NCBI GenBank assembly: GCA_016930235.1
Contig: JAFGHI010000015.1
Coordinates: 4,218 to 68,217, forward strand
Source of the DNA: Candidatus Omnitrophota bacterium
Lineage (GTDB): Bacteria > Omnitrophota > Omnitrophia > Omnitrophales > Aquincolibacteriaceae
DNA length: 64,000 nucleotides
Direction of reading: 5' to 3'
Positions 12,574-38,923 of the stretch are shown piece by piece. A program made the translations under genes and the position numbers. The notes under the pieces are model-generated. The model had not been told where the DNA came from, made no database searches, and worked only from the letters and a program-made list of their open reading frames with translations. Position 1 is the first letter of the stretch. Every line of letters begins with the position of its first letter.

Positions 12574-14085
12574 TTAGAACGCTAAGCTGACTGTCCCAAC
12601 AACCTCTTTGGCAGTCTCTGTTGCCTGGTTCATCGATGACCCAAACGTATTTACGGTCGTACGATCCGTGTCAAAATAATCACCGGGCCAGAAGAACGCA
12701 CCGATCAAGCCAAACGTTAAATCTTCCGTATAGGCGTAATCAAGTGTCATATCCAATTCGTTCCCGATAAATTTGCCACGACCGGCAATAGGCACTTCAT
12801 CTAACCAGAAAAGCAACCAACGAGTGAAGAAGGTCAAATCCTGGTTGTTAAACGGATGGAAAGAAGCATCAAACATGACTTGATGCTGATTGGTGTAGCC
12901 AGGTGTAACACCCACATCGGTAAAGTAAAACTGCCCTTGAAACTCCCGAATCGCGCTATAGTACTTACCCCGGAAGAGAGGACGATAATTGGTTGAGGTG
13001 TTATCACTTTCATTACGATCTTCACCCGAATAGAAAACCCATCCTAAACCGAGTTTGGTCGGCCACGGGGCTTCCAGCCAATCCCATTCAGCTCTCAAAT
13101 CATACGCAAGGGCCATAATGTTTTGACGTTCACGCCCGTTAAGCGTAAAAGCACGCAATGTGGAGCTGGCGTCATTAACTCCTTGAGGAAGCACACCGTT
13201 CGCTCCACCTTCTTCACCAAATTCCCACACAACTTCGCCGGCCAACTTCAAACGATCCCACGGCCGAACGCTTCCGCGAAGCCCGATAGCATAGACAACT
13301 TCGGGTTCTGTATAAACATCACCCCAGTTGTTTGCTTGATCTCGATCGCGGCTTAAGAGTGTGTAAATTTCACCTTCTGCAGAATAAGCATCAAAAACAC
13401 GCCCCACATTGATACCTACCAGATCATGATCATCACCCGCATCGATCTGATCTTCACGAACTTTCGCAGCCACCAAATCAAAATGCCATGGAGCATTATC
13501 AATTCTCGCTGTAATGGCATCGAAGCTGTTGAACATCGAAAATTCGTCTGCGGAAATGGTGTTGGAAGGATCGGGATTCCCAAGTTGACTCGAGCCAATG
13601 GCAAACCCTTCACCCCACTGAATATTCTGGCGGCCAATCTTAACCGACAATTCGGGGTAATAAAGTTCTTTGATGGTGATATTGGCAAGATTCAGAATCA
13701 CATCAAACTGGTCATTCGCTGCGCTTCCACCCGCGCCTTGAAAAACAGTACCATTGGTTGCCAATGGCGAACCCTGTGCACCCCCGGAAGGCGCATCAAT
13801 GTCCCGCTGGTTCATGAGTTCAACTTCAGCGGAAATATTTTCGGTTAAATCAGCATCCACTCTCAAGCGGACGGTGCTCATGAAAAACTTCTGGTCATCA
13901 TCACCCGCAAAAACACCACCGTTGTAAGTCGACGTTTCTAAATTACCAAGCGTATAACCGTCACGATACAAACCACGAATCGTTATGTCACCGCTCAGTT
14001 TCACATTCTCGACTGCTGCAAACGCTGGTACTGCTAAAGCCACACACAAAACCAACGTAAGCCAGAACGCTTGTTTGCGAAACAT
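12574..14085 (-). CDS. Outer-membrane beta-barrel protein of unknown function (porin-like)
   Basis: Signal peptide MFRKQAFWLTLVLCVALAVPAFA preceded by GGGAGG RBS. Alternating amphipathic strands. C-terminal ...VSLAF aromatic terminus typical of BAM substrates. Confidence 0.6.
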   Translation of the reverse strand: MFRKQAFWLTLVLCVALAVPAFAAVENVKLSGDITIRGLYRDGYTLGNLETSTYNGGVFAGDDDQKFFMSTVRLRVDADLTENISAEVELMNQRDIDAPSGGAQGSPLATNGTVFQGAGGSAANDQFDVILNLANITIKELYYPELSVKIGRQNIQWGEGFAIGSSQLGNPDPSNTISADEFSMFNSFDAITARIDNAPWHFDLVAAKVREDQIDAGDDHDLVGINVGRVFDAYSAEGEIYTLLSRDRDQANNWGDVYTEPEVVYAIGLRGSVRPWDRLKLAGEVVWEFGEEGGANGVLPQGVNDASSTLRAFTLNGRERQNIMALAYDLRAEWDWLEAPWPTKLGLGWVFYSGEDRNESDNTSTNYRPLFRGKYYSAIREFQGQFYFTDVGVTPGYTNQHQVMFDASFHPFNNQDLTFFTRWLLFWLDEVPIAGRGKFIGNELDMTLDYAYTEDLTFGLIGAFFWPGDYFDTDRTTVNTFGSSMNQATETAKEVVGTVSLAF

Positions 14086-14303: not shown

Positions 14304-17300
14304 TCATCTTTGAAGCTGAGACCCTAAGTCGGATTGCCGTGTTTCCTGAGAACTAATAGGGCCGCCCCATCGTCCTTGTTGAGGTGGAATCGACAAGTTT
14401 TCAGAATCAATTGCAAACTGTTTTCCCTCAAGGAAATAAGCCTGTTTCTTCAATCGATTCTCCCATTCCAGGAACCGGGCTTCTTGCTTCCTTTGATCCT
14501 CAAACATCGTTTTCCGCATCCGGTCGAGATCTCCTTCAGCTTTTCTCAAAGCTGTCCATTCCTGCTGAACCTGCTGCTGCATTTGCCGCAATTCTTTCTC
14601 CCGCTCAGCAATCGCGGTAAATTTCCGCTGCAATTCTTCTTCACTATGCTGAACCGCATTGGTTCTATTTTTTTCTTCTTCCTGCCAGCGCATTTTATCG
14701 TGTTCGAGCCTATTCTTAGCAGAAAGAAGTTCTTGTTTTTCTTTTTCGATTTCACTCCTTTTAGCCAGCAGTTCGTCTCTTAGATTTTTTTGAGAATCGC
14801 TAAAACCCGCCACTTCCCGTTCGAACCGGTCTCTTTCTTCTTGGAGGGCAATCATTTTTTGTTTCAAATCACTTTGATCAAGGCTAAATTGTCTTTTCTC
14901 CTTTTCCAGGGTAATCCTTTCTTGACGTGCTTGCTCAGATTCTTGGAGCATTTGTTCTTTACGCCCGTCAAGCTCTTTGGCCCCCTGCTTCAAGATGGCC
15001 TGTCCTTGCTCCATGGATTGTTCTTTCTCGCGAATCCGATTCTCCCATTCCAGCTTTTTCTGCTCCCAATCCATTAATTTCCTTTCAAAGGCCTGGAAAC
15101 GTTCTTCCATCTCCTGCTCATGCAACCGCATATCCTCTTCACGAGCAGCTAGCTGTTGTTTCTTCTGGTTCATCTCCTGTTCAAGGATATCCAATTCCTG
15201 CCTCTGCCGAAGGGCGTCTTCCTTCCATTCGACTTGGGTATTGTGTAACTTATCCCTCTGAACCCTGAGCTGCTCTTCACGTTCTTGGAGATTCTGTCCC
15301 ATCCTTACGAGACCTTGCTTCTCTTCAAGAAAGGCATTGTAATTTTTTTCAAAATCCGTTTTCGCAACATCAAAAGCTTCTTTTCTTTCATTAAACTGTG
15401 AAATCTCTTGAGCAATCGAATTTTGCTTTTCCTGAAGCAATTGGTTCTTTCGGGCCCATTCTTCCTGAATCTGAGCCAAAGCGGACTTATCTTCATCAAA
15501 CTGTTTGCGTTCCTGTTCGAGATCAACCCGCTTTTTCTCCATATCCCTCTCAGATTCCTTAAACGCCGCCAACCGCCTGATAAATGCCTCCCGTTCAATC
15601 CTGAAAGCCTCGCCATCTTCCTCTAATTTCTGTTCTCGTGTGGCAAGGATTCTCTTTTCACGTTCAATGTCAGCCTTAGATGCATCCAGTTCTTTAACGA
15701 ACTTCTGTTTTTCCGTTTCAAATATCTGCTTTTCTTCATTCAAATAAGAAGACGCGCGGATAAAGGCCTGCTCTTTTTCAGAAACAGACCGGATTCTTTC
15801 ATCAAGATTAGCCTTTTCTTTAAGGATACTACTCTCCAGGGCCTCGAATTCCCTCTTCCTTTGATTGGTCTTCTCTTCCTCTTGGTTAAGCTCCATCCGT
15901 TTTCTGGTGACGAGTTCCTGCATCTGATTGAGCTTGGTCTCTTCTGCTTGGACAATCTGTTCCCTTTCGGCTAAGGACTCCGCCTTTTGGCGTAAAGCAA
16001 GCTCTTCTCCGTTCAATTCCTCACGATAGCGGTCTAATCCTTTCTTTTGCGATTCGATGTCCGAACGCAAATCCTGAAGCTGTTTGGCTTCATCCCGAAT
16101 CCGGCCTGCACGTTCATCCAAGCTCTGTCTCGTTGCATCGAGCGCATTGCGAATCCTATTCTTTTCATCGTTAAAGGCTCCCAGATCTTCAGCTAACTTA
16201 AGTTTCTCATCCTTTAACGCCTCTTCACGGGTCACAGTTTCTGTTTCAAACTGAACGCGCTTATTCTCCCAGTCTTCACGCTGTTGCCGGAAATCCTTCA
16301 ACTCCTTAAAAAACATGGCCCGAGCTTCTTCAAGCGCACCCCGCTCCTGATTAAGATCTTCCAACTGAACCTGTCTGTCCTTTTCCCACTGTTCTTTCTC
16401 GCGAGAAAATTCAGCCCACTGATTGTCCAGTTCTTCCGAGCTCAAAAGAATCTGTTCTTCAGCTCCCCAGCGCGCACGTTGTTCCTCATAATTTTCAATC
16501 TCAGCCATCAATTGCTGCTTGCGATCCATAAGATTTGATATCGTTTGTGCAAGCTCTTCTTTCTCATCCCCAAACGATCTTTTCATTTCCTCCAATTGTC
16601 TTTCCCTTTGCGCCAATTCTTCCTCTTTTTCATCCAAGGCCGATTGACGGGATTGAATATCGGTCTGAGCATCATAAATCCGCTGCCGTTCCTCATCCAA
16701 AGCCTTTTGCTGTTTTTCGAAAATCTTAAACCGCTCTTCAAGCTCGGCACCCTGTCCATCGATGCTGCCTTCTTGATGAGTCAACTTCGCAAGCTGTTTC
16801 TTTAAGTATTCCTCTTTCTCAACGATGGCTTGGACTTTTCCGACAAGATCGCTTTCGATTTTTGCCTTTTTCTTTTCCCATGAAGCTTTCTCTTCCCGAA
16901 ATGTCTTCTCTTGTTCTCCAAGTTCAGAAGCCTTATTTTCGAGAACCTCCATCCTGGCTTCGACAGTAAGCTGGCGGTCTGCGATTTCTTTTTCTTGTTC
17001 GCTTGAAAGCTGTGTTTCGCGTGTCGATAGTTCTCTTAATCGAGAAACAAGTTCCTCCTCTTTGCCCTTTAAGGTTTCCCAATTGCTTTGTCTTTCTTCA
17101 AGCGCTTCTCTCGCCCGCGTATACGCTTCGCGCTCTTCAGTGAGCTGAATCTCCTGCTCCGACAAAGCTTCCTTAAGTTCAGCCACCATTTCTTTGTCTT
17201 TGTCCAGAACATCGAGCCGGGCATTGAGTTCTGCTCTTTCTTTCTCTAGCTTCTGGAAGCTTTCCTTTAATCTTTGTTCGATACCGTCTTTTTGAACTTC

Positions 17301-18239
17301 CCAATCAAACCGGCGCTGAGCCAATTCCTGCCTTTCCTTTTCAATCTCATCATTACGGACATTTAAAAATTCGATTTTCTGTTCCCATTCTTTTTTAAGA
17401 GTCTCCGCCGCATTAAGCTTTTGTTTTAATTCCTCGGACCGCCGCCTCAGCATCTGCTCCTGCTCCTGCAAATCCTCCTTTTTACCCGAACGGCTCAGGA
17501 GCTCAGTGCGCCTTCCGGCCAATTCCATCTTTTCCTGCTCGAGACTTCTGCGTTCACGGGTTAAACGGTCCTCAATGGCCCTTAACTCCCTTTCTTTTTG
17601 TTCGAGTTGACTCTGGCCGCTTGCCATGCCGCGATCCTGCTCATAACTGACTTCGGACATTTGCTTTCTTAAATCAGCAAGCGTCTGTTTCAGATTTTCA
17701 ATCATTAAGTTTCGATCGTGTAATTCATTCGTCAGCCGATCGATTTGAGTCTGCTGATCCTTTTGAGCACCCTGGCCTTGACGTTTTTCGATCACCGCCC
17801 TTAAATCATTCTCGAGCTTTTTCTTAAGTCCTTCGAGTTTCATCTTCTCTTCTTCGATGGCAAGCCGCTGATTCTGCTCAAGATCCTGCATTCTCTCCTC
17901 AAATTCCTTTTCCCGCTGCGCTAGAGCATCTGACTGAGCCTTCTTTTCCCCTACCCATGCTTCACGCTCCTGCTGAAACTTTTCTATTTTATCTAAGAGC
18001 GTTCGTTTGATTTCTTCAAGGCGGGCTTCCTTCTTATCCAAGAGCTGAATCTGGTTATTCCGGTCTTCCGTCCAGCGTCGTTGAGCGGCTTCAAATTGAG
18101 CGATTTCCTGCGCAAAACCGTAGTCGGCGTTTGACCCTTCTTGAGCCATCGAATTAAGAGTGTAAGCAAAGCACAGAAGAAAAGCGATGTGTCCAATAAC
18201 AATCGTTCGGGTGAGAGACTTTTCTACTATACGGTTCAT
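14304..18239 (-). CDS. Giant (1311 aa) membrane-anchored coiled-coil protein with degenerate W-E-x-K/R repeats
   Basis: N-terminal hydrophobic anchor IVIGHIAFLLCFAYTL. The rest is almost entirely E/K/R/Q/L heptad-like sequence. Recurring modules: KEWEQKIEF, FDWEVQKDG, SNWETLKGK, ASWEKKKAK, EQWEKDRQV, EDWENKRVQ, MDWEQKKLEWENRIRE, LEWENRLKK. No nucleotide-binding motif. Confidence 0.7.
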   Translation of the reverse strand: MNRIVEKSLTRTIVIGHIAFLLCFAYTLNSMAQEGSNADYGFAQEIAQFEAAQRRWTEDRNNQIQLLDKKEARLEEIKRTLLDKIEKFQQEREAWVGEKKAQSDALAQREKEFEERMQDLEQNQRLAIEEEKMKLEGLKKKLENDLRAVIEKRQGQGAQKDQQTQIDRLTNELHDRNLMIENLKQTLADLRKQMSEVSYEQDRGMASGQSQLEQKERELRAIEDRLTRERRSLEQEKMELAGRRTELLSRSGKKEDLQEQEQMLRRRSEELKQKLNAAETLKKEWEQKIEFLNVRNDEIEKERQELAQRRFDWEVQKDGIEQRLKESFQKLEKERAELNARLDVLDKDKEMVAELKEALSEQEIQLTEEREAYTRAREALEERQSNWETLKGKEEELVSRLRELSTRETQLSSEQEKEIADRQLTVEARMEVLENKASELGEQEKTFREEKASWEKKKAKIESDLVGKVQAIVEKEEYLKKQLAKLTHQEGSIDGQGAELEERFKIFEKQQKALDEERQRIYDAQTDIQSRQSALDEKEEELAQRERQLEEMKRSFGDEKEELAQTISNLMDRKQQLMAEIENYEEQRARWGAEEQILLSSEELDNQWAEFSREKEQWEKDRQVQLEDLNQERGALEEARAMFFKELKDFRQQREDWENKRVQFETETVTREEALKDEKLKLAEDLGAFNDEKNRIRNALDATRQSLDERAGRIRDEAKQLQDLRSDIESQKKGLDRYREELNGEELALRQKAESLAEREQIVQAEETKLNQMQELVTRKRMELNQEEEKTNQRKREFEALESSILKEKANLDERIRSVSEKEQAFIRASSYLNEEKQIFETEKQKFVKELDASKADIEREKRILATREQKLEEDGEAFRIEREAFIRRLAAFKESERDMEKKRVDLEQERKQFDEDKSALAQIQEEWARKNQLLQEKQNSIAQEISQFNERKEAFDVAKTDFEKNYNAFLEEKQGLVRMGQNLQEREEQLRVQRDKLHNTQVEWKEDALRQRQELDILEQEMNQKKQQLAAREEDMRLHEQEMEERFQAFERKLMDWEQKKLEWENRIREKEQSMEQGQAILKQGAKELDGRKEQMLQESEQARQERITLEKEKRQFSLDQSDLKQKMIALQEERDRFEREVAGFSDSQKNLRDELLAKRSEIEKEKQELLSAKNRLEHDKMRWQEEEKNRTNAVQHSEEELQRKFTAIAEREKELRQMQQQVQQEWTALRKAEGDLDRMRKTMFEDQRKQEARFLEWENRLKKQAYFLEGKQFAIDSENLSIPPQQGRWGGPISSQETRQSDLGSQLQR

Positions 18240-18302
18240 AAAAGGATGAGAATTTTTATTCCTATGATTTATTTCCTTACAAAAATCACATTTTGAGGAT
18301 AG

Positions 18303-18329
18303 AAAAAAAGCCCCATCGCGCGATGGAGC
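18303..18329 (-). terminator. Rho-independent terminator between the two giant coiled-coil genes
   Basis: Minus RNA GCUCCAUC-GCGC-GAUGGGGC (8-bp stem including one GU pair) followed by UUUUUUU. Lies 230 nt after the stop of the upstream gene and 64 nt before the start of the downstream gene. Confidence 0.6.
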
Positions 18330-18559
18330 TTGTTTACCTCTTCGTCATGAAAATCATTTCTGCGCCCGTGGAAAGACCTCCGGTCAATTTTGTAATAAAG
18401 TAGCACGAGCAATGACTTATGTCAAGACGAGGATTAGAGTTATAGCAAATTTGTTTCGGAAAAATGAGAGCGCCCAAATTTCCATTTTAGAACACGCTAT
18501 GAATATCTCAGAGAAGAAGAGTTGTTTTGAACTAACTCTTTCTGGATAGGGGGCTTAGA

Positions 18560-21181
18560 CTATTTCCCGGATCTTATGTTTTGTATCTTTGCAAGTAACG
18601 CTACGCGAACCTGTTCAACAAGTTGTTCCTTGCTTTCAAGTTCTTGGATTTTGGCTTGCGCCACTTTCTGCCAAGCTTCTTTTTGCGTTTCAAACTGGGT
18701 TTCTTTATTCTTTAAGGTATTCCAATGGTTTTCAAATTCTTTGATACGACGGTTGAGATCCTCTTCACGGTTTTGGAAATTCTTTTCGGTTTCCTTATTA
18801 TCTTGCTCCAATTTCTGCCGTTTCTCTTCAATCTCAACTAAGAGCGACTCGATCCTTTTCCGATCTACGCCGATAATTGCTTTCTCCCTCTGAAGTTGCA
18901 GAATTTTTTCACCGGCTTCCGACTTCAATTTTTCGTCACTAATCATCCGTTTGATTTCCTGCCAATCGTCTCTCTGTTTGGCAAAGAAGGCCTTCTCCCG
19001 TCTTAATTGGGCACTCGCCTTATCAAAACGAGCTGTCTTTTCTCTGATCCGTGTCTCCTGATTTTCTACTCTATTTTCGCGCTGTTTGAGTTGTTCTTTT
19101 TCGCGATCCAAGGCGCGGCGCTCAGTTTCAAGACCCACTTTTTCCTTTTCAACAGCAGCGACACGCGCTTTCAATTCTTCATAATTTTGCAATTGATTCT
19201 TAAGTGAGGATTCTTTGTCGGCAAGTGCCTTTTCTCGCACCCGAAGAGCCTCTTCTTCCTGTTTCTTTTCAGCTTGCAAAGACACACGCTCGGCTTTCAA
19301 AAGTTTTAATTGATCCGCCAGAGCTTGTTTTTCCTGCGCCATTTTCTTTCTAGCGTCATCAAAACTTGCATTCCGGGATTCCCATTCTTTCTTCTTCTCC
19401 TCCCAAGAATTGATTTCCGTACGATAATCATTCCATTTTTCATCCAGCACAGCTTTCTCGTTTTGTACGGTCTTGGCCCGCAAAACAAGACTTTCTTCCT
19501 CTTTTCTTTTCTCCGCCGCCCATAGACCTTGCTGCTCTTCAAAAGCTTGTTTCTGCTGATAAAGTTCGTTACGTGCACGGACAACGTCCTGTGCTTTTTG
19601 ATCAAGAGCTACCCTCTTGGCCTCAACCATCTCACGAAGCTTCTCAAGATCCTGCCTTTCCTTTTCCAATCCTTGGCGCATCACCCGAAGAGATTCCCGA
19701 TCTCTCTCCAATTCCTGGATCTGCCCCTCCAATGATTGAACTTTGAGTTCAAGCAACTTCTTTTCCTTCGAAACCCTGCCCTGCTCCAACATTCTTTCTT
19801 CTTCGATCGATCTTCGCTTAGCTTCAATCGCCGTCATGGCGCGCCGCATTTCTTCCCGTTCCAACGACATCGCTTTTCTTTCTTCCTCAAAAGCCATGAT
19901 CTTCTGCTGCCATTTCCCCCTTTCCTCATTCCATTGAGCGGCTTTCCCTTGAAACTCGCGAACACGGGATTCTAACAGCGTTTTTTGCTCCTGAAGTTTT
20001 TCAGCTCTCACCGAAATCTGGTTCAAGGCGTCATCTTTCTTCGAACCCCAAGCGCTTTGCATTTCCTGAAATTCTTGTTTTTCAGCTTGGATGCCTTTGC
20101 GGACGAGCGCCAATTCCTGAAGCTTCTCGTTTAACTCGCGCTCGCGCGCACTCAATGCTTCTTTTTCCTGATCCACCCCGGACATTCTCGCTTCAAATTC
20201 TCGCTCTCTATCTTTCAAGATCTGCCATTGTTTCTCCAATTGCTGACCCTTTACCTGCAACTCGCTAAAAGCAGCTTTCTTTTTTTCTCCCAAAATCTGC
20301 TGGGCCTCGTTTATTTTTCTCTGTTGCTCGTGAAGTTTTTCCCGCACCAAAACAAGATTCGAAACCTTCTCGCGAAGAGCCTCCTCCTTAAGTTGAATCT
20401 GCTTACGAGCTTCGCCCAGGTCCTTCACTTTCTGTCCCACATCTTGTTCTTTTACACTCAGGGCTTTTTCACGCTCCCCCAATTGGGTCATTGCACGCTC
20501 AATCGTTTTCGATTTTTCCTCGATTTCTCGCTCTTTTTGGGTGAGCCATTTTTCCTTCCGTTCAAGAGACTGCCTTTCTTTGTCAACGGAAGATTCGTAT
20601 TCCTTAAACTCATTGATCTTTTCCTGCATTAAAGGCCACTCGCGACGTACTTCCTGCGGGATCGACTTAACGGCCCTTTCTTCTTTGATCACGGAAGGCG
20701 CTTCGGGCCGGATAATGGTTTCATCAAGAATGGGTTTTGCCAAATCGCTCATCATGGAATCAAATTCGTTTTCCCACTGATCATCCAAAACACCTTCTGA
20801 AAAATCCGTCTCCCAAGGCTCAGGATCTCCGCTTTGCGGCATCACAACCCCTTGGAAGGCGCCTTTCATCTCATCCATTCGGGGGTCACTTTGCTTGGGG
20901 GCAGACTCTTTCCACCAAAAACTCTCGTTCTTCTGAGATTTGAAGGCCTCCATTTCTTCGGTAATCTGCTGAAGGGTTTTCGAGGGATCTGCGCTGTTGC
21001 CTTCGGCCATTTCCTGATTCTCTCTGGAAGGAACCTTGGGCCCGTCAAAACCAGAGGCAATTTGTTTGGCTATCTGCCGGCCGGCAATGACAGCTTGAAC
21101 AGGAACTTCGAAAACAAAACAAATGAAAACAAAACAGATAAGGGTACAAGTGAAAAGAAGAACCGGTGATCTCTTTTTCAT
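18560..21181 (-). CDS. Giant (~873 aa) membrane-anchored coiled-coil protein, paralogous to 14304..18239
   Basis: Start set at MKKRSPVLLFTCTLICFVFICFVF (signal anchor) with GAGG 9 nt upstream. The ORF track extends to 21310. Remainder E/K/R/Q-rich with the same aromatic-W modules: EKWLTQKERE, KQWQILKDRE, AQWNEERGKWQQK, INSWEEKKKEWESR, DDWQEIKR. Confidence 0.7.
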   Translation of the reverse strand: MKKRSPVLLFTCTLICFVFICFVFEVPVQAVIAGRQIAKQIASGFDGPKVPSRENQEMAEGNSADPSKTLQQITEEMEAFKSQKNESFWWKESAPKQSDPRMDEMKGAFQGVVMPQSGDPEPWETDFSEGVLDDQWENEFDSMMSDLAKPILDETIIRPEAPSVIKEERAVKSIPQEVRREWPLMQEKINEFKEYESSVDKERQSLERKEKWLTQKEREIEEKSKTIERAMTQLGEREKALSVKEQDVGQKVKDLGEARKQIQLKEEALREKVSNLVLVREKLHEQQRKINEAQQILGEKKKAAFSELQVKGQQLEKQWQILKDREREFEARMSGVDQEKEALSARERELNEKLQELALVRKGIQAEKQEFQEMQSAWGSKKDDALNQISVRAEKLQEQKTLLESRVREFQGKAAQWNEERGKWQQKIMAFEEERKAMSLEREEMRRAMTAIEAKRRSIEEERMLEQGRVSKEKKLLELKVQSLEGQIQELERDRESLRVMRQGLEKERQDLEKLREMVEAKRVALDQKAQDVVRARNELYQQKQAFEEQQGLWAAEKRKEEESLVLRAKTVQNEKAVLDEKWNDYRTEINSWEEKKKEWESRNASFDDARKKMAQEKQALADQLKLLKAERVSLQAEKKQEEEALRVREKALADKESSLKNQLQNYEELKARVAAVEKEKVGLETERRALDREKEQLKQRENRVENQETRIREKTARFDKASAQLRREKAFFAKQRDDWQEIKRMISDEKLKSEAGEKILQLQREKAIIGVDRKRIESLLVEIEEKRQKLEQDNKETEKNFQNREEDLNRRIKEFENHWNTLKNKETQFETQKEAWQKVAQAKIQELESKEQLVEQVRVALLAKIQNIRSGK

Positions 21182-21418: not shown

Positions 21419-21492
21419 GCCCCTATAGCTCAAATGGATAGAGCATCTCCGTCCTAAGGAGAGGGTTGCATGTTCGAGTCATGCTGGGGGCA
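21419..21492 (+). tRNA. tRNA-Arg (anticodon CCU)
   Basis: GCCCCTATAGCTCAAATGGATAGAGCATCTCCGTCCTAAGGAGAGGGTTGCATGTTCGAGTCATGCTGGGGGCA. Acceptor GCCCCTA/TGGGGGC, anticodon stem TCTCC/GGAGA with loop GTCCTAA, T-loop TTCGAGT. Confidence 0.85.
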
Positions 21493-21589
21493 CTTACCCC
21501 TTCTTGCCAAAAGAAAGAACACCGGAACGGATACCCAACTGGGAGAAGAATGACTTGATGATCTTCGTGAAGTTTTAAAGCTTAAGCCG

Positions 21590-22120
21590 CTAAAACTGAA
21601 TCAGTGAAAAAATATCATATTTTGATAGTTTTTCGCGGCCTTTGAGGAAAAGAAGCTCAACAAGGAAGACAATGCGGGCAACCTGCCCTCCCAACTTTTC
21701 AACCAACTCAGCTGCAGCTAACGCCGTTCCTCCCGTCGCCAAGAGGTCATCCACAACAATAACCCTGGCCCCTGATTCGATCGCGTCCTTATGGATCTCA
21801 AGCGTCGCCTCTCCGTATTCCAGTTGGTAGGAGATCTCCTCTGTCTGATAAGGAAGTTTCCCTTTTTTTCGGACAGGAATAAAACCCGCGCCCAAGCGAT
21901 AAGCTAAAACGGGGCTAAAAATAAACCCCCGCGACTCAATCCCCACCACATAACGAATATTGAGATCCTTTAAAGCATTCACCATCTCATCCAAGATGTG
22001 GCGGAAAACAACCGGATGTTTTAAAAGCGGCGTGATATCCTTAAAAACAATGCCTTTTTTAGGAAAATCGGGGATATCCCGCACAAAATTCTTGACCTCT
22101 TTATCATTGAGTTTGTTCAT
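21590..22120 (-). CDS. apt: Adenine phosphoribosyltransferase
   Basis: PRPP-binding motif VIVVDDLLATGGTA and IESRGFIF. 176 aa. Confidence 0.9.
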   Translation of the reverse strand: MNKLNDKEVKNFVRDIPDFPKKGIVFKDITPLLKHPVVFRHILDEMVNALKDLNIRYVVGIESRGFIFSPVLAYRLGAGFIPVRKKGKLPYQTEEISYQLEYGEATLEIHKDAIESGARVIVVDDLLATGGTALAAAELVEKLGGQVARIVFLVELLFLKGREKLSKYDIFSLIQF

Positions 22121-23343
22121 GAGGTTAAATAATTCTCCAGCCGGTCGTTTTCTTCGGATAGACGCAACCGAATCTTTTTAAGCGCCGACGCTTCAATCTG
22201 CCGCACGCGTTCCCGGGTAATCCCAAACTGCTGAGCGACTTCTTCCAAGGTATGCTCTTCTTCTTTGCCCAAACCAAACCGCAAAACCAAAATTTTACGC
22301 TCCCTTTCATCCAAAGTATCCAACAACCTCTGAATCCGTTCGTCCTTAAAAATCTCGGCCATATAAGCGTCCGGCATATGGGATGAATCATCTTCGATAA
22401 GATCAATCAGTTCAGCGGTCCCATCCAAGCTGACAGGAGCATTCAGTGAACTCGGCTTGCCTGCGATATTTTCAATCTCTTTGACTTTATGAATTGAAAT
22501 CTGCATCACGTTGGCAATCTCTTTACGGGTCGGCGGACGGTTTAATTTCTGCGTCAACCCATCCCGGACTTTCCGCCACTTGGCAATGACATCGTACATG
22601 TAAACAGGAATCCGTATGGTTTTCCCTTGGTTCGAGAGTGACCTCATAATGGCCTGTTTGATCCACCAAGAAGCATACGTTGAGAAACGGTACCCCCGGT
22701 CAGGGTTGAATTTCGTCACTGCACGCATTAATCCGATATTCCCTTCTTCAACAAGATCCGAAAAAGACAACCCCATATTGGCGTATCGTTTCGCAATGGA
22801 GATCACCAAACGAAGATTCGACCGAATCATTTGGGAACGAGCTTGAATGGCACCGCGGCTCTTATCGCGTACCCTTTCGGAAAGAACGACCTCTTCTTCA
22901 GGAGTCAGCAAGGGAATATTCTCGATCTGATCGAGATAGATTTTCATGGGAGTCCGGTCAAGCGTTTGATCTTGGGAAGTACCGCCCTGAGTTTGGCTTT
23001 CGTCATCGGGTTCGCGACGGCGTCGGCGCCGCTCATCGGGAGCTTCTAGGACGGCTTCATTTCGAAGAATGTCCCGCGCTTCCTGCCTTAACGACTGTTC
23101 TGCCGTTTTCAGCGCCTCTTTTTCCTTTGAGGTTGCGCGGGTTTTACGGACACGCTGCCTTGCAGCTTCTCTTTCAACGCGCTTCTTTTCCTGCCGGGAC
23201 CGAATCAGGGATAAAACCTCAGCCAGCGTTTTTTTCTGAGGTTTCTTTTTTGAGCGCGGCGCCCGTCCCCGTCTTTTTCCAGACGCGGTTTGACGCCGAC
23301 TCTTAGTAGATTTCTTGTTTTTCCTGCGTTTTGACTGTCCCAT
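22117..23343 (-). CDS. Sigma-70 family RNA polymerase sigma factor (RpoD-like regions 1.2-4) with a K/R-rich N-terminal extension
   Basis: Regions 2 (DLVEEGNIGLMRAVTKFNPDRGYRFSTYASWWIKQAI), 3 and 4 (LEEVAQQFGITRERVRQIE) are present. The first ~130 aa are lysine/arginine-rich instead of the acidic region 1.1. Confidence 0.85.
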   Translation of the reverse strand: MGQSKRRKNKKSTKSRRQTASGKRRGRAPRSKKKPQKKTLAEVLSLIRSRQEKKRVEREAARQRVRKTRATSKEKEALKTAEQSLRQEARDILRNEAVLEAPDERRRRRREPDDESQTQGGTSQDQTLDRTPMKIYLDQIENIPLLTPEEEVVLSERVRDKSRGAIQARSQMIRSNLRLVISIAKRYANMGLSFSDLVEEGNIGLMRAVTKFNPDRGYRFSTYASWWIKQAIMRSLSNQGKTIRIPVYMYDVIAKWRKVRDGLTQKLNRPPTRKEIANVMQISIHKVKEIENIAGKPSSLNAPVSLDGTAELIDLIEDDSSHMPDAYMAEIFKDERIQRLLDTLDERERKILVLRFGLGKEEEHTLEEVAQQFGITRERVRQIEASALKKIRLRLSEENDRLENYLTS

Positions 23344-36002: not shown

Positions 36003-38273
36003 TTAAAATTCCCAGCGTACCCCACATTGGTATTCCCGCGGAGCTCCGGGCACAACAAAGGTATACGTTCCATCGGGAAGGACCGTCGCACCGCCCCAAG
36101 CCGCTGGGAAGACTGTCGCATCCACAGCACGGGAATAATACTTGTTATTAAAAACGTTGTTCACCTTAAAATAAACCTCGAAATTTCTCCAGGAATAGGA
36201 AACGAGAAAATCCCAAACCGAATAGGCCTTGATTTGATGGCCCGCCCCGCCGGTCGCATCCAAGGTTGCCTGAGCGGTCGACTCATAAGCCAGCACGTGT
36301 TGGTCCCCGGTATAAATCCCATTGAGGGACAATTTTAAACCGTCATAAGGTTCTCCCAAACGGACCAAGGGATAAAGCGTCGTTCCCCAGGTAAAACGGT
36401 GTTCCGGGATTTGCCCCAAGTCCCGGCCGTCGATGAGACTCCCTCCCTGGTCGGTTTCCCGCACGTAAGCATCCGTGAGCGTATAAGACCCGTAAAGTGA
36501 AATCTCGTCGACTGGCTTGACGTCCAATCGCGTCTCAATCCCCGAACGCCTGCTTTTTCCGATATTAATATTCTGTCCGAAAGGCGCATTGACCGTCACC
36601 GAAGTAGAGTCCCAAACAATCTCATCCTTTAAATCAATCAGAAAGAAACTGCATTTGAAAAGCCCCATCTCTTTCGGTAAACGAATCCGGGTACCGACTT
36701 CGTAACTATCCGAGACCTCGGGACGAAGACTTGTCGAAATAGTCCCGGAGAAAGGAGACAATTCACTGATCGTCGGCACACGAAACCCCTGGCTGTAATT
36801 GCCGTAAAGATCCGTCCAAGAAAGGGGTTTGATAATCAGACCGGTTGACCAACTCGCTTCATCCCACCGGCGGCTGATATTCTGGGTCGGCATCATGGCA
36901 TCCGAGGCATTCAAGCGATATTGGTCGAGCCTCATCCCAACATGCGCGGTCACCCGTTGGGCGATCTCTCCGGTCTGGCGCCAGTAGAGTGCCCAGTTTC
37001 TCGGGTCCGAGCTCCTGTCGGTTTCGCGCGGACTGTTTTCAACGACATTTCCTCCGAAGGCATCCTGTTCCAATCCGTAATTGGAGGCGTTACGAAACTC
37101 CATCCCCAGGGTTGTTTGGTTGTGATACCAGCCCCACTCGTCCTCATAAGCAAGCTGCCAGACAAGATCGGTCGCCCTTGATTTTGTCGTCACCAGATCC
37201 GTATCGGGATTAAAAGCACCGTCGGCGAACGTAAGCGATGTCGTGTAAAAGTGAGCGAGATTGACCCGCCAGGAAGCCAAGATCGAGGCCAAAACACGGT
37301 GGTCCCAAAAATATTTATTGGCCTCCATTTGAAGGATTGTCATCCGGTAATCCCGGCCATCCAAGGGCTTTAAGGTCATTTCTTCATTGATCTGATACAA
37401 ATCGTAAGGCAGCGCCCCCGGATTGGAAACCGCATCATCCACGTGCTTCAACCCGAACCGAAAGTTCCCCTGGTCGTCGGGAAGTTCATAAGCGGTCTTG
37501 ATATTAAAGGAAGTAATCCGGTATTCCCCATTACTGCGGAAACCGTCCCCTAATTTACGGCTGCTGTTGAAATAGTAGGTCCACTTTCCCGCCAAGGGCG
37601 TTATTTTATCCTGAAGCGTCCCGCTAAATCCGTTATAGAATTGAATGCCCCGGTTGCTTGAGAATTCAAAACCTCCGAAAAGGCTCAGACGCTTTTCACT
37701 CGGCCGGCGCGTCGTCAAATGGACCACTCCGGCAAAGGCACCGCTCCCAAAAATAGGCGAAGCCGAACCGCGGTCAATTTGGATCGATTCAAGATCGCTC
37801 ATATCGATCAAGGGATAAATCACATCATCCCCGTCCACTTCATTGATACGGACCCCGTCCAAAAGATGGACGACCGCGCTCCCTTCCGAAAAACCCCGGA
37901 GACTGAACGTGCGGTCGACCCCGTTTCCGACCTGGTCATAAAAAAGGGCGCCCTCCACATCCTCGATGGACCCTTGATAATCACGCGGATGATAGGCATG
38001 AACTTCTTCGCCTTCGCGGCGCGTGACATTGGCGGGAATGTAACTTATATTGGCAGGAACATCGGCAAATGGGACTTTGAAACAAGGAAGCCGTGAAGCC
38101 ACCACCGTCACCTGATCATAGGTTAACACCCGTGATTCATCGGTCTTCAACTCGTCTGTAACTTCTGGAGTTTCTGTTGGGTTCGGTGAAGGAACCTCAG
38201 CAAAAACCGGGTACGACACACTCAAAAAAACCAAAAGCAAAAACTTACTGACTTGAAGCAACATCCTTTCCAT
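36003..38273 (-). CDS. TonB-dependent outer-membrane receptor (BtuB-like)
   Basis: Signal peptide MERMLLQVSKFLLLVFLSVSYPVFA with AAAGGAGG RBS. Plug domain, 22-strand barrel. C-terminal ...GVRWEF aromatic terminus. Preceded by cobalamin-riboswitch-like leader. Confidence 0.85.
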   Translation of the reverse strand: MERMLLQVSKFLLLVFLSVSYPVFAEVPSPNPTETPEVTDELKTDESRVLTYDQVTVVASRLPCFKVPFADVPANISYIPANVTRREGEEVHAYHPRDYQGSIEDVEGALFYDQVGNGVDRTFSLRGFSEGSAVVHLLDGVRINEVDGDDVIYPLIDMSDLESIQIDRGSASPIFGSGAFAGVVHLTTRRPSEKRLSLFGGFEFSSNRGIQFYNGFSGTLQDKITPLAGKWTYYFNSSRKLGDGFRSNGEYRITSFNIKTAYELPDDQGNFRFGLKHVDDAVSNPGALPYDLYQINEEMTLKPLDGRDYRMTILQMEANKYFWDHRVLASILASWRVNLAHFYTTSLTFADGAFNPDTDLVTTKSRATDLVWQLAYEDEWGWYHNQTTLGMEFRNASNYGLEQDAFGGNVVENSPRETDRSSDPRNWALYWRQTGEIAQRVTAHVGMRLDQYRLNASDAMMPTQNISRRWDEASWSTGLIIKPLSWTDLYGNYSQGFRVPTISELSPFSGTISTSLRPEVSDSYEVGTRIRLPKEMGLFKCSFFLIDLKDEIVWDSTSVTVNAPFGQNINIGKSRRSGIETRLDVKPVDEISLYGSYTLTDAYVRETDQGGSLIDGRDLGQIPEHRFTWGTTLYPLVRLGEPYDGLKLSLNGIYTGDQHVLAYESTAQATLDATGGAGHQIKAYSVWDFLVSYSWRNFEVYFKVNNVFNNKYYSRAVDATVFPAAWGGATVLPDGTYTFVVPGAPREYQCGVRWEF

Positions 38274-38494
38274 CTCTCCTCCTTTACCCGCGTAAAGAGA
38301 CCCTAGGGGTTCTAGGATCTGTTTCCTTGAAAAGAGCGAGATCTTCTGGCTTGTGGCAACAGTCGCAATCACCTACTTGCAGCACCTTCCCAACAAAATA
38401 AGTTAAAAGTAAAAAGTCAAAAATTAAAACTATCGAAAATCATTTTCTTAACCCGTAACTCGCTTTTGACTTTTGATTTATTACTTCTAACTTT

Positions 38495-38575
38495 TAAGTC
38501 AGTGGTCTTCGGCTGCTTTCGTTCCACGTACAGCTGCGGGGCAGCGGCGGCTCATCCGCCTTCCCTCCACTCTCA
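38495..38575 (-). promoter_or_regulatory. Second, compact cobalamin-riboswitch-like aptamer (copy 2) in the receptor leader
   Basis: Minus RNA GAGUGGAGGGAAGGCGGAUGAGCCGCCGCUGCCCCGCAGCUGUACGUGGAACGAAAGCAGCCGAAGACCACUGAC. Contains AGGGAAG, GCUGCCCCGCAGCUGUA (core GCC-CCCGC-ACUGU), a B12-box-like AGCCGAAGACC and CCACUG. Shares the CCGCCGCUG...ACGAAAGC...ACCACUG backbone with copy 1. Confidence 0.45.
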
Positions 38576-38595
38576 AGTTTTGATTGTGAACGAAC

Positions 38596-38646
38596 AAAAA
38601 AAATCCCTTTGAGCAAGTTCCGAGGAGAATACGCTGCTCAAAGGGA
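38596..38646 (-). terminator. Intrinsic terminator (probable riboswitch expression platform)
   Basis: Minus RNA UCCCUUUGAGCA-19 nt loop-UGCUCAAAGGGA (12-bp stem) followed by UUUUUUUU. About 55 nt downstream of the B12 box of copy 1. Confidence 0.7.
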
Positions 38647-38699
38647 AAACACTTCCTAAGCTTTTTTCAATCCTCTGCTCGGAGGCTCAATCTTTCATG

Positions 38700-38900
38700 T
38701 TGATGAGGGTAGGTCTTCTGACTGACGAGCGTTCGTATCCTACTTACGAACCTTCCCACCCGCCAAAACTGAGGCAGGCAGTGGTTAATTTCGCTTTCGT
38801 TCTCGTCGACAGCGGCGGCACCGTGGAGTCAATTGCACACAGCAATTGCTCGCTTCCCTATGAAGTTCGAAATCCCTTTCGAACACCCACACCGTTTAAG
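38700..38900 (-). promoter_or_regulatory. Cobalamin (B12) riboswitch-like aptamer (copy 1)
   Basis: Minus RNA contains, in canonical order: AUAGGGAAGCGAGC, GGUGCCGCCGCUGUCGA, ACCACUGCC, GGUGGGAAGG, and the B12 box AGUCAGAAGACCUACC (consensus AGYCMGGAGACCKGCC, 2 mismatches). No ORF on either strand. Confidence 0.6.
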
Positions 38901-38923
38901 AAAGAACATTCAATAGTGGAGTC

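Follow-up and report, generated by a model that had tools for sequence, protein, structure and literature searches.

A periplasmic filament of Vibrio involves CrvA and CrvB, which are encoded by adjacent homologous genes; related genera carry a single-gene ancestral form, CrvY, and Crv homologues have been reported as restricted to the Vibrionaceae (10.1101/2020.02.20.954503). Here we analyzed a 64,000-nucleotide stretch of the genome of a Candidatus Omnitrophota bacterium (assembly GCA_016930235.1, contig JAFGHI010000015.1, positions 4,218 to 68,217; hereafter the window), in which two adjacent minus-strand genes encode long, predicted helical rod proteins, CC1 and CC2. Like CrvA and CrvB, they are the products of two adjacent homologous genes, are non-enzymatic and are predicted to lie outside the cytoplasmic membrane, and single-gene forms exist elsewhere (CrvY in the one case, giants of 2022 and 2688 aa in the other). 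They differ in being several times longer, in their atypical single-stripe heptads and Trp-marked stutters, and in coming from Omnitrophota; a filament is here only a prediction. CrvA carries a PEGA domain; a Pfam scan of CC1 and CC2 found no Crv-type domain, PEGA included, and no direct alignment to Crv sequences was made.

Cytoplasmic filament proteins invite a second comparison. Crescentin, FilP and Scy resemble CC1 and CC2 in their succession of head, long heptad rod and tail, in their stutters (4-residue insertions), in their conserved rod ends and in having no enzymatic domain (PMC10873595, PMC6599971), and intermediate-filament (IF) proteins conserve consensus motifs at the rod ends (PMC10873595). 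However, those proteins are cytoplasmic, whereas CC1 and CC2 carry predicted export signals and have mostly K/R in the second core position; crescentin and IF proteins also have few stutters, compared with about one register break per 60–70 residues here. No sequence similarity of CC1 or CC2 to crescentin, FilP or Scy was detected. Scy is about 1300 aa long, a length like that of CC1, and both Scy and FilP have a hendecad-based long (51-residue) repeat. Among extracytoplasmic helical rods, Lpp, TolA domain II and Thermotoga Omp-alpha are about 8–50 nm long, stand perpendicular in the periplasm and are held by lipid, transmembrane or SLH anchors. CC1 and CC2 would share with these a structural role in a diderm envelope, but the rods of the CC1 family would reach 100–380 nm and have no lipobox, SLH domain or C-terminal anchor.

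Our preferred reading, tentative and close to a balanced call, is that CC1 and CC2 are Sec-exported, non-enzymatic, intermediate-filament-like helical rods that form a periplasmic or envelope scaffold, analogous but not homologous to CrvA/CrvB. An earlier note on this DNA had described the pair as membrane-anchored coiled-coil proteins with a recurring Trp module and had suggested an extracytoplasmic scaffold; its observation is confirmed, its description is largely accurate and its interpretation is supported in part.

N-termini and conserved ends of CC1 and CC2

Both open reading frames (ORFs) lie exactly where the earlier note had placed them (Table 1), and every motif string it quoted is present in the two proteins. 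CC2 starts at the ATG at 21181, with GAGGT 5 nt upstream; longer forms starting at an upstream GTG or ATG (916 and 913 aa) are without a well-spaced ribosome-binding site. The CC1 protein has an exact match on Logan contig SRR13394437_403781. The two proteins (E 16–18%, K+R 19–20%, Q 9–11%, L 9–10%) have about 44% charged residues and a hydrophobic content of 24%, and are about 90% helical. As had been claimed, each protein has exactly one hydrophobic segment, at its extreme N-terminus, and no catalytic signature in the form of a Walker A or B pattern was found in either. A pattern check for a lipobox was also negative in CC1 and CC2.

The N-terminus of CC1 has an n-region charge of +2, a 21-aa uncharged run, S at −3, A at −1 and an acidic mature N-terminus. 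All CC1-type sequences follow this order, with a positive n-region, a hydrophobic stretch, an A/Q junction and then a net-acidic segment; the junction is common to all those aligned (SMA, VFA, ALA, LYA three times, SFA and INA). In four relatives (P0001, P0003, P0004 and P0005), the uncharged stretch is only 12–18 aa long, c-region included. Across the seven family N-termini that were parsed correctly, CC1 and CC2 among them, uncharged runs measure 12–24 aa, the charge before the hydrophobic segment is +2 to +3, and the charge after it is net negative in all but CC2. Because this N-terminal feature is kept although the sequences themselves diverge, it is evidently translated and functional. 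CC1-type N-termini look like cleavable Sec signal peptides of the signal peptidase I layout rather than anchors. The N-terminus of CC2 (MKKRSP-VLLFTCTLICFVFICFVF-EVPVQA/VIAG; V at −3, A at −1) is modelled as a helix at residues 6–23 and is ambiguous, as its longer core could be either cleaved or an anchor; in both cases, the helical part of CC2 would lie outside the cytoplasmic membrane. The charge distribution predicts an N-in/C-out orientation, and this pattern, together with the conserved A/Q site, argues that the rods are extracytoplasmic. The earlier description of the proteins as membrane-anchored is therefore doubtful, given the cleavage-type small-x-A/Q site, positive n-region and acidic mature N-terminus of CC1 and its relatives.

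Beyond the signal peptide, CC1 is tripartite: a conserved head and a conserved tail, each of about 60 aa, enclose a rod of variable length (total protein lengths of 1311, 2022 and 2688 aa in the family). Compared with the closest relatives, sequence identity is about 42% for head and tail and 23–26% for the rods. In a seven-sequence alignment of N-termini (A1), residues E50, W56, K70, I77, K78, L81, L82, K84 and I85 of the head are invariant, and a hidden Markov model (HMM) of the head scores 89–99 bits on family N-termini. The tail alignment (A2), which combines CC1, the fragment P0002 and the giant relatives at loci L005 and L007, has invariant W62, E63, L66, W94 and G95 (A2 numbering). Its motif, [LF]x[EL]WEx[KR]L[KR][KQ], is followed by a second Trp about 30 residues on and by an acidic Ser-rich stretch, and the relatives end in LPxxhKGR.

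Rod periodicity and the Trp module

As register shifts made global Fourier analysis uninformative, periodicity was assessed by autocorrelation of hydrophobic residues. The z-scores at lags 7, 14, 21 and 28 were 14, 12, 10 and 8 in CC1 and 9.7, 10.2, 9.3 and 5.5 in CC2. Peaks were found solely at these lags in CC1, CC2 and both giant orthologues, with z up to 16; the lag-11 (hendecad) signal was only z 0.4–2.8, and the dominant period is 7. At lags 3 and 4, the autocorrelation was zero or negative in these four proteins but mostly positive or about zero in the controls, the arms of E. coli MukB and a tropomyosin sequence, which show the usual second core position, unlike CC1 and CC2.

The register was assigned with a Viterbi model in which only a single position of each heptad earns a reward. 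In this register, the stripe position is 97–99% hydrophobic in CC1 and CC2 and 86–88% in the two orthologues. In CC1 and CC2, stripe residues rank L > F > I > W and are 23–26% aromatic; position +4 is 39–43% K/R and only 17–23% hydrophobic, position +3 is 34–39% K/R and position +1 is 35–37% E/D. The heptads are thus of a leucine-zipper-only kind, with a single hydrophobic stripe and not a canonical a/d core. If the stripe is read as d, then e is acidic and g basic, as is classical for parallel dimers, while position a is unusually basic. Opposite-charge pairs are enriched at i+3/i+4 (intrahelical) but not at i+5 (interhelical), so intrahelical salt bridges are prominent. The heptad periodicity described earlier stands, but the rods are not canonical a/d coiled coils, there being only one hydrophobic position per heptad.

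The register breaks 20 times in CC1 and 9 times in CC2, about every 60–70 residues, and most breaks are of the stutter type, with stripe gaps of 4 or 11 residues (14 of 20 and 7 of 9, respectively). AlphaFold2 (AF2) models, which were run without an alignment and are of low confidence, consist mostly of helix except in the CC2 head. In the CC2 model, a signal helix is followed by a disordered head (38–175) and five helices of 97–158 residues, whereas the model of CC1 residues 1–1200 comprises sixteen helices, between 22 and 122 residues long, of which the signal peptide is the first. In the CC2 head, the predicted local distance difference test score (pLDDT) is below 50 over residues 38–66, 80–135 and 147–175, and all 15 Pro residues of CC2 fall within aa 6–183. 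Fully extended, the helical spans would measure 183 nm in CC1, 103 nm in CC2, and 281 and 377 nm in the orthologues. A single helix of 1300 aa, as imagined in the earlier note, is unlikely in view of the 20 register breaks in CC1 and of the low-confidence models, which split the rods into helices of about 20–160 aa.

The aromatic module proves to be real and above chance, although the literal W-[EQ]-x-[KR] string is seen at just 6 of 18 and 3 of 17 Trp residues and is a fragment of a longer signature. Among 29 rod Trp windows of CC1 and CC2, position −7 is aromatic in 16 (background 5%), −3 is basic in 14, +4 is basic in 18 (background 21%) and +11 is aliphatic in 15 (background 19%). The full signature is therefore an aromatic residue at −7, K/R at −3, W, K/R at +4 and a hydrophobic residue at +11; 38 windows of two orthologues show the same, plus acidic residues at +1 and +3. 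A non-heptad step follows 25 of 48 stripe Trp residues, compared with 65 of 861 other stripe residues (odds ratio 13, p 1.5e-14), which makes the module a conserved stutter marker rather than a ligand-binding or catalytic motif.

Two further features of the relatives concern the rods. In aa 270–419 of the fragment P0004, near-identical 55-aa tandem repeats each contain a Trp module (…LAVNPWEGKEKDLARREAELQNQT…), which shows that rods can expand by recent repeat amplification. In the giants, long central stretches are free of Trp (aa ~1000–1780 of the giant at L005 9857–17923; aa ~1150–1566 of that at L007 9938–16006) and are flanked by regions rich in Trp modules, so that these rods may comprise two different kinds of segment.

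Relatives, genomic slot and the relation of CC2 to CC1

Pfam and a phmmer search of all PDB sequences gave no match for CC1 or CC2; the head and tail profiles retrieved nothing significant from PDB, and Foldseek found no PDB match for the low-confidence CC2 model. NCBIfam scores fell below the cut-offs: SMC (TIGR02168) reached 44.7 bits with CC1 and 36.6 bits with CC2 against 567, on coiled-coil stretches only, HmpF (NF038350) 30.4 and 30.3 bits against 200, and FlbB (NF047368) 19.6 bits against 110. The PADLOC defence library gave one 19-bit match to the arms of JetC, and PHROGs nothing. SMC, MukB, Rad50 and JetC have long heptad-containing helices, as CC1 and CC2 do, and account for the sole weak database matches (at most 45 bits); however, CC1 and CC2 are without ATPase head, hinge and Walker motifs, no Pfam SMC_N or hinge domain was found in them, and MukB arms have a normal two-position core. 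Gram_pos_anchor, SLH and other wall-binding Pfam domains were absent from CC1 and CC2 as well as from the orthologues, the host being an Omnitrophota of the diderm type, and the Pfam scan of CC1 and CC2 revealed none of the LPXTG or SLH-type domains that mark M-protein-like fibrils and S-layer anchors. The statement that the pair belongs to no characterised family thus withstood Pfam, NCBIfam, PDB, PADLOC, PHROGs and Foldseek, which gave no confident match to SMC, M protein or an S-layer anchor.

A word-index search with full-length CC1 and CC2 returned 8000 low-complexity candidates, none significant, and was uninformative, since an exhaustive HMMER scan did find relatives. That scan, with CC1 residues 1–1200 against 1.84 billion cluster representatives, gave only nine matches at E <= 1e-3, of which seven are real. 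None of these is more than a fragment: six represent the N-terminus and one (P0002) the C-terminus. By exact look-up, full-length CC1, CC2 and the two giant orthologues are absent from a 15-billion-protein collection, in which relatives occur as fragments only. Long coiled-coil genes of this type are systematically under-represented and hard to retrieve. When metagenome contigs were scanned with the A1 alignment, four loci were found; at L005 (and L004, which is the same) and at L007, the matching segment begins one giant ORF, 2688 and 2022 aa long, respectively. CC1 and CC2 belong to a new and very small family, so far seen only on Omnitrophota-like contigs, which is best placed among the bacterial coiled-coil-rich structural proteins, as a predicted exported form.

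The gene order glyQ-glyS-PPDK-sigma-APRT-tRNA-Arg(CCT)-rod gene-5-FTHF cyclo-ligase-xseA-...-ispA is common to the window, L005 and L007, so CC1 has positional orthologues. Orthologous giants occupy the same slot in L005/L004, L007 and L006, and tRNA-Arg(CCT) adjoins the rod gene in L005, L007 and L006. The rod family is thus shown to sit in a stable slot across several Omnitrophota lineages, with the gene duplicated in the genome of the window. In GC content and third-position GC content (GC3), CC1 and CC2 match the genes around them, and they have no similarity to each other at the DNA level, which makes them old residents of the genome and not a recent insertion; no DNA-level repeats were found. 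Recent horizontal insertion beside tRNA-Arg was considered separately and is ruled out by the order of tRNA and rod gene, which is kept in other contigs, and by the GC and GC3 match.

Table 1. Features of the rod-gene locus, in window coordinates.
Feature	Position	Strand	Remarks
CC1 rod protein	14304..18239	minus	ORF, 1311 aa; window orthologue of an Omnitrophota family found in the same slot elsewhere
CC1 predicted signal peptide (aa 1-32)	18144..18239	minus	MNRIVEKSLTRTIVIGHIAFLLCFAYTLNSMA, then QEG; from charge and cleavage-site features
CC1 head, "Ndom" (aa 43-106)	17922..18113	minus	two Trp modules 39 aa apart (W56, W95)
CC1 internal Ndom-like unit (aa 606-667)	16239..16424	minus	weak: 9.4 bits, level with the best control
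CC1 tail (aa 1256-1311)	14307..14474	minus	FLEWENRLKKQ ... W ... SSQETRQSDLGSQLQR; alignment A2
CC2 rod protein	18560..21181	minus	ORF, 873 aa; putative diverged, truncated paralogue of the first half of CC1
CC2 predicted signal peptide or signal anchor (aa 1-30)	21092..21181	minus	MKKRSPVLLFTCTLICFVFICFVFEVPVQA, then VIAG; n-region +3, 18-aa hydrophobic core
CC2 non-helical head (aa 31-175)	20657..21091	minus	Pro/acidic/Trp-rich, predicted disordered
CC2 helical rod (aa 176-827)	18701..20656	minus	heptad stripe with 9 register breaks; AF2 helices 176-333, 347-467, 473-603, 618-750, 774-870
CC2 C-terminal Ndom-like unit (aa 828-871)	18569..18700	minus	head HMM 22.0 bits; cut by the stop codon at about model position 48 of 64
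Spacer between CC2 and CC1	18240..18559	minus	320 bp; terminator-like hairpin 18308-18331, promoter-like hexamers
tRNA-Arg(CCT)	21419..21493	plus	slot landmark between APRT and the rod gene
Outer-membrane barrel	12574-14085	minus	Alginate_exp, E 1e-14; adjoins CC1; own promoter-like site

CC2 shares single-stripe heptads and Trp/stutter modules with CC1. With BLASTP, CC2 240–870 aligns with CC1 105–651 (23% identity, E 1e-8, colinear), and CC2 168–870 aligns with residues 306–1144 of the L007 giant; both alignments end at an internal head-like unit, within which CC2 stops, without the family tail. These units were sought with a head HMM built without CC2, for which reversed and shuffled controls scored at most 9.7 bits. 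Besides the C-terminal unit of CC2, extra head-like copies were found in the giants (L007 1110–1155 at 21.8 bits; L005 1775–1825 at 13.3 bits). The weak internal unit of CC1 is colinear, and its W618 and W657 are 39 aa apart and repeat the arrangement of the head, with F at −7, W, 39 aa and W. A good deal of the raw similarity between CC1 and CC2 is generic: the Smith–Waterman score of the rods (466) is modestly over that of a reversed-sequence control (396), with heptad-block shuffles at 316 +/- 16. Paralogy of the two proteins, as the earlier note had proposed, is supported, not strongly, by the colinear BLASTP alignment and by the head HMM score at the CC2 C-terminus. On the simplest reading, CC2 would go back to an old tandem duplication that was partial, taking in the 5′ half of a CC1-type gene, with the copy truncated in the internal head-like unit. 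Fission of a giant gene into CC2 and CC1 is ruled out, because the signal peptide and head of CC1 align with orthologue N-termini and because CC2 aligns with the first half of CC1 and not with a missing N-terminal part. Two other ideas were set aside. An iterative HMM search for a clean tandem domain array gave few extra Ndom-like units only, and its later rounds were circular; an apparent remnant of the head motif near the start of CC2 (LQQITEE...FWW), noticed on visual inspection, received no support from the HMM.

Some 70 nt upstream of where CC1 starts, the spacer between the genes holds a strong terminator-like hairpin, AAGCTCCATCGCGCGATGGGGCTT, with a run of T after it. This hairpin could be a CC2 terminator, a CC1 leader or attenuator, or a small RNA; together with the promoter-like hexamers, it suggests that CC2 and CC1 are separate transcription units. 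No Rfam family reached threshold in the spacer, and its folding z-score was just −1.8. A 7-codon ORF (MIFMTKR) also lies within it.

The outer-membrane barrel gene on the other side of CC1 had been proposed as a functional link, which its distribution does not bear out. The barrel has its closest relative in the Candidatus Omnitrophota metagenome-assembled genome (MAG) JACQLI01 (53% identity), where the order is APRT-tRNA-Arg-barrel and there is no rod gene at the slot. In the related MAG without rod genes, the barrel (L002 8247–9740) occupies the same slot, next to tRNA-Arg(CCT), whereas it is absent from the slot in L005 and L007, which have the rod gene. As the two are not co-conserved, the barrel is an independent neighbour and not a partner. 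Since the presence of barrel and rod differs among contigs, the interval from tRNA-Arg(CCT) to 5-FTHF cyclo-ligase behaves as a variable cargo site for envelope genes.

Elsewhere in the window, the RpoD-like sigma factor (22117–23343, minus; L002 6359–7372) has a long, extremely K/R-rich N-terminal extension (MGQSKRRKNKKSTKSRRQTASGKRRGRAPRSKKKPQKK…), which is also present in the related MAG, and its gene overlaps the APRT start by 4 nt. Tandem cobalamin riboswitch aptamers (38319–38602 and 38691–38905, minus; 52 and 62 bits) lie directly upstream of a 789-aa ORF (36003–38372).

Possible roles of the rods

In the scaffold reading that we favour, the chains would pair as parallel dimers, which the pattern of g = K/R and e = E fits, and the dimers would join via the conserved rod ends into periplasmic filaments or a meshwork lying along the envelope. 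The resulting periskeleton or envelope scaffold would stiffen, shape or space the envelope of Omnitrophota cells, which are about 0.2 µm across (PMC10066038), and CC2 would be a partner that co-assembles or caps, as the analogy with CrvA/CrvB suggests. Because the fully extended rods would measure about 100–380 nm (103–377 nm, set against this cell size), they would have to lie along the envelope and not across it. The extracytoplasmic scaffold suggested earlier is the most plausible reading, given the export-type N-termini and the absence of any domain pointing elsewhere. Several observations weigh against it. The core is unusually weak for a coiled coil, with a second core position that is only about 17–23% hydrophobic, and the i+3/i+4 charge pairs could mean that the helices are partly single or packed otherwise. 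Confidence of the AF2 models is low (pLDDT 59–64; predicted template modelling score, pTM, 0.25–0.27), and filament formation, oligomeric state and orientation are purely inferred. In addition, the genomic neighbours are housekeeping genes that give no functional hint, and one related MAG has no rod genes at the slot, so the rods are not universally required.

After Sec export, the rods could instead pass through the outer membrane and assemble on the cell surface or beyond it, as fibrils, a coat or an adhesin that contacts host or prey cells. A role of very large surface proteins in attachment has been proposed for Omnitrophota (PMC10066038); fibrils would suit the proposed parasitic or predatory lifestyle of the phylum, the export signal and rods as long as or longer than the cell diameter (PMC10066038) are compatible with them, and strong length variation (1311 to 2688 aa) and tandem repeats such as those of P0004 are typical of surface proteins. 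We nevertheless regard this as unlikely, because the searches turned up no gene for a secretion system, no autotransporter or other beta-domain, no sorting signal and no adhesin domain, because the rods and the barrel next to them are not conserved together, and because a stable housekeeping slot and host-like GC3 are more in keeping with a core structural gene than with a surface antigen in an arms race. A periplasmic rod tethered to the inner membrane by an uncleaved signal anchor, acting as a spacer or tether in the manner of TolA or Omp-alpha, would draw on the very hydrophobic 18-residue core of CC2, which is long enough to span a membrane, and on the 21-aa uncharged run of CC1. This seems rather improbable, however, since the h-regions of most of the CC1 family are short, at 12–18 aa in four relatives, and precede a conserved cleavage-type A/Q site, and since a perpendicular spacer is geometrically impossible for rods of 100–380 nm, which far exceed the width of any periplasm.

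Two other explanations turn on the helices themselves and on their compartment. CC1 and CC2 might not be coiled coils but charged single alpha-helices, whose aromatic and aliphatic ridge, flanked by K/R, would serve as a long ruler or binding strip on an anionic surface (a membrane leaflet, peptidoglycan or a polysaccharide). The lone hydrophobic position of each heptad, with its K/R neighbours on either side and an acidic far face, the i+3/i+4 spacing of intrahelical salt bridges and the 23–26% of stripe residues that are aromatic all speak for this, as does a report that coiled-coil domains of IF-like proteins bind cellulose (PMC6224456). CC1 and CC2 also resemble single alpha-helix (SAH, ER/K) domains in their charged content of about 44% and in their enrichment of i+3/i+4 opposite-charge pairs. 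Yet SAH domains have no hydrophobic seam, whereas here one heptad position is 97–99% hydrophobic over hundreds of residues; to our knowledge, this stripe occupancy and the hydrophobic content of 24% are well above those of charged single alpha-helices. Strict 7-residue spacing (3.5 residues per turn) moreover makes the ridge spiral about a straight helix, a geometry that suits supercoiled pairing rather than binding to a flat surface, and we find the single-helix explanation hard to credit. A cytoplasmic coiled-coil-rich protein is more improbable again and is largely excluded: size and composition are similar, and there is weak sub-threshold similarity to SMC, HmpF and Rad50 coiled coils, but the positive-inside rule gives N-in/C-out in the seven correctly parsed family N-termini, the A/Q site is conserved, and the periodicity is heptad rather than the hendecad-based Scy/FilP type.

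A bolder form of the exported-scaffold reading, speculative but possible, is that the rods represent a new class of exported cytoskeleton-like polymer. Such a polymer would be held together by a single Leu/Phe/Trp seam flanked by Lys/Arg, with Trp-marked stutters as hinge or registration points and head–tail end joining; it would wrap the periplasm or form a coat of ultra-small Omnitrophota cells, and rod expansion (1311 to 2688 aa) and gene duplication (CC2) would adjust its length. If the exported-scaffold reading is true, the family would be only the second known type of periplasmic periskeleton after CrvAB and the first from a phylum that is uncultured and has ultra-small cells. Coiled-coil structural biologists and designers of proteins may find its simple sequence rule of interest: each heptad has a single hydrophobic residue, K/R takes the neighbouring core position, and Trp stands just before stutters. 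Protein databases hardly show the family, and its conserved head and tail motifs can be used to find and annotate more members.

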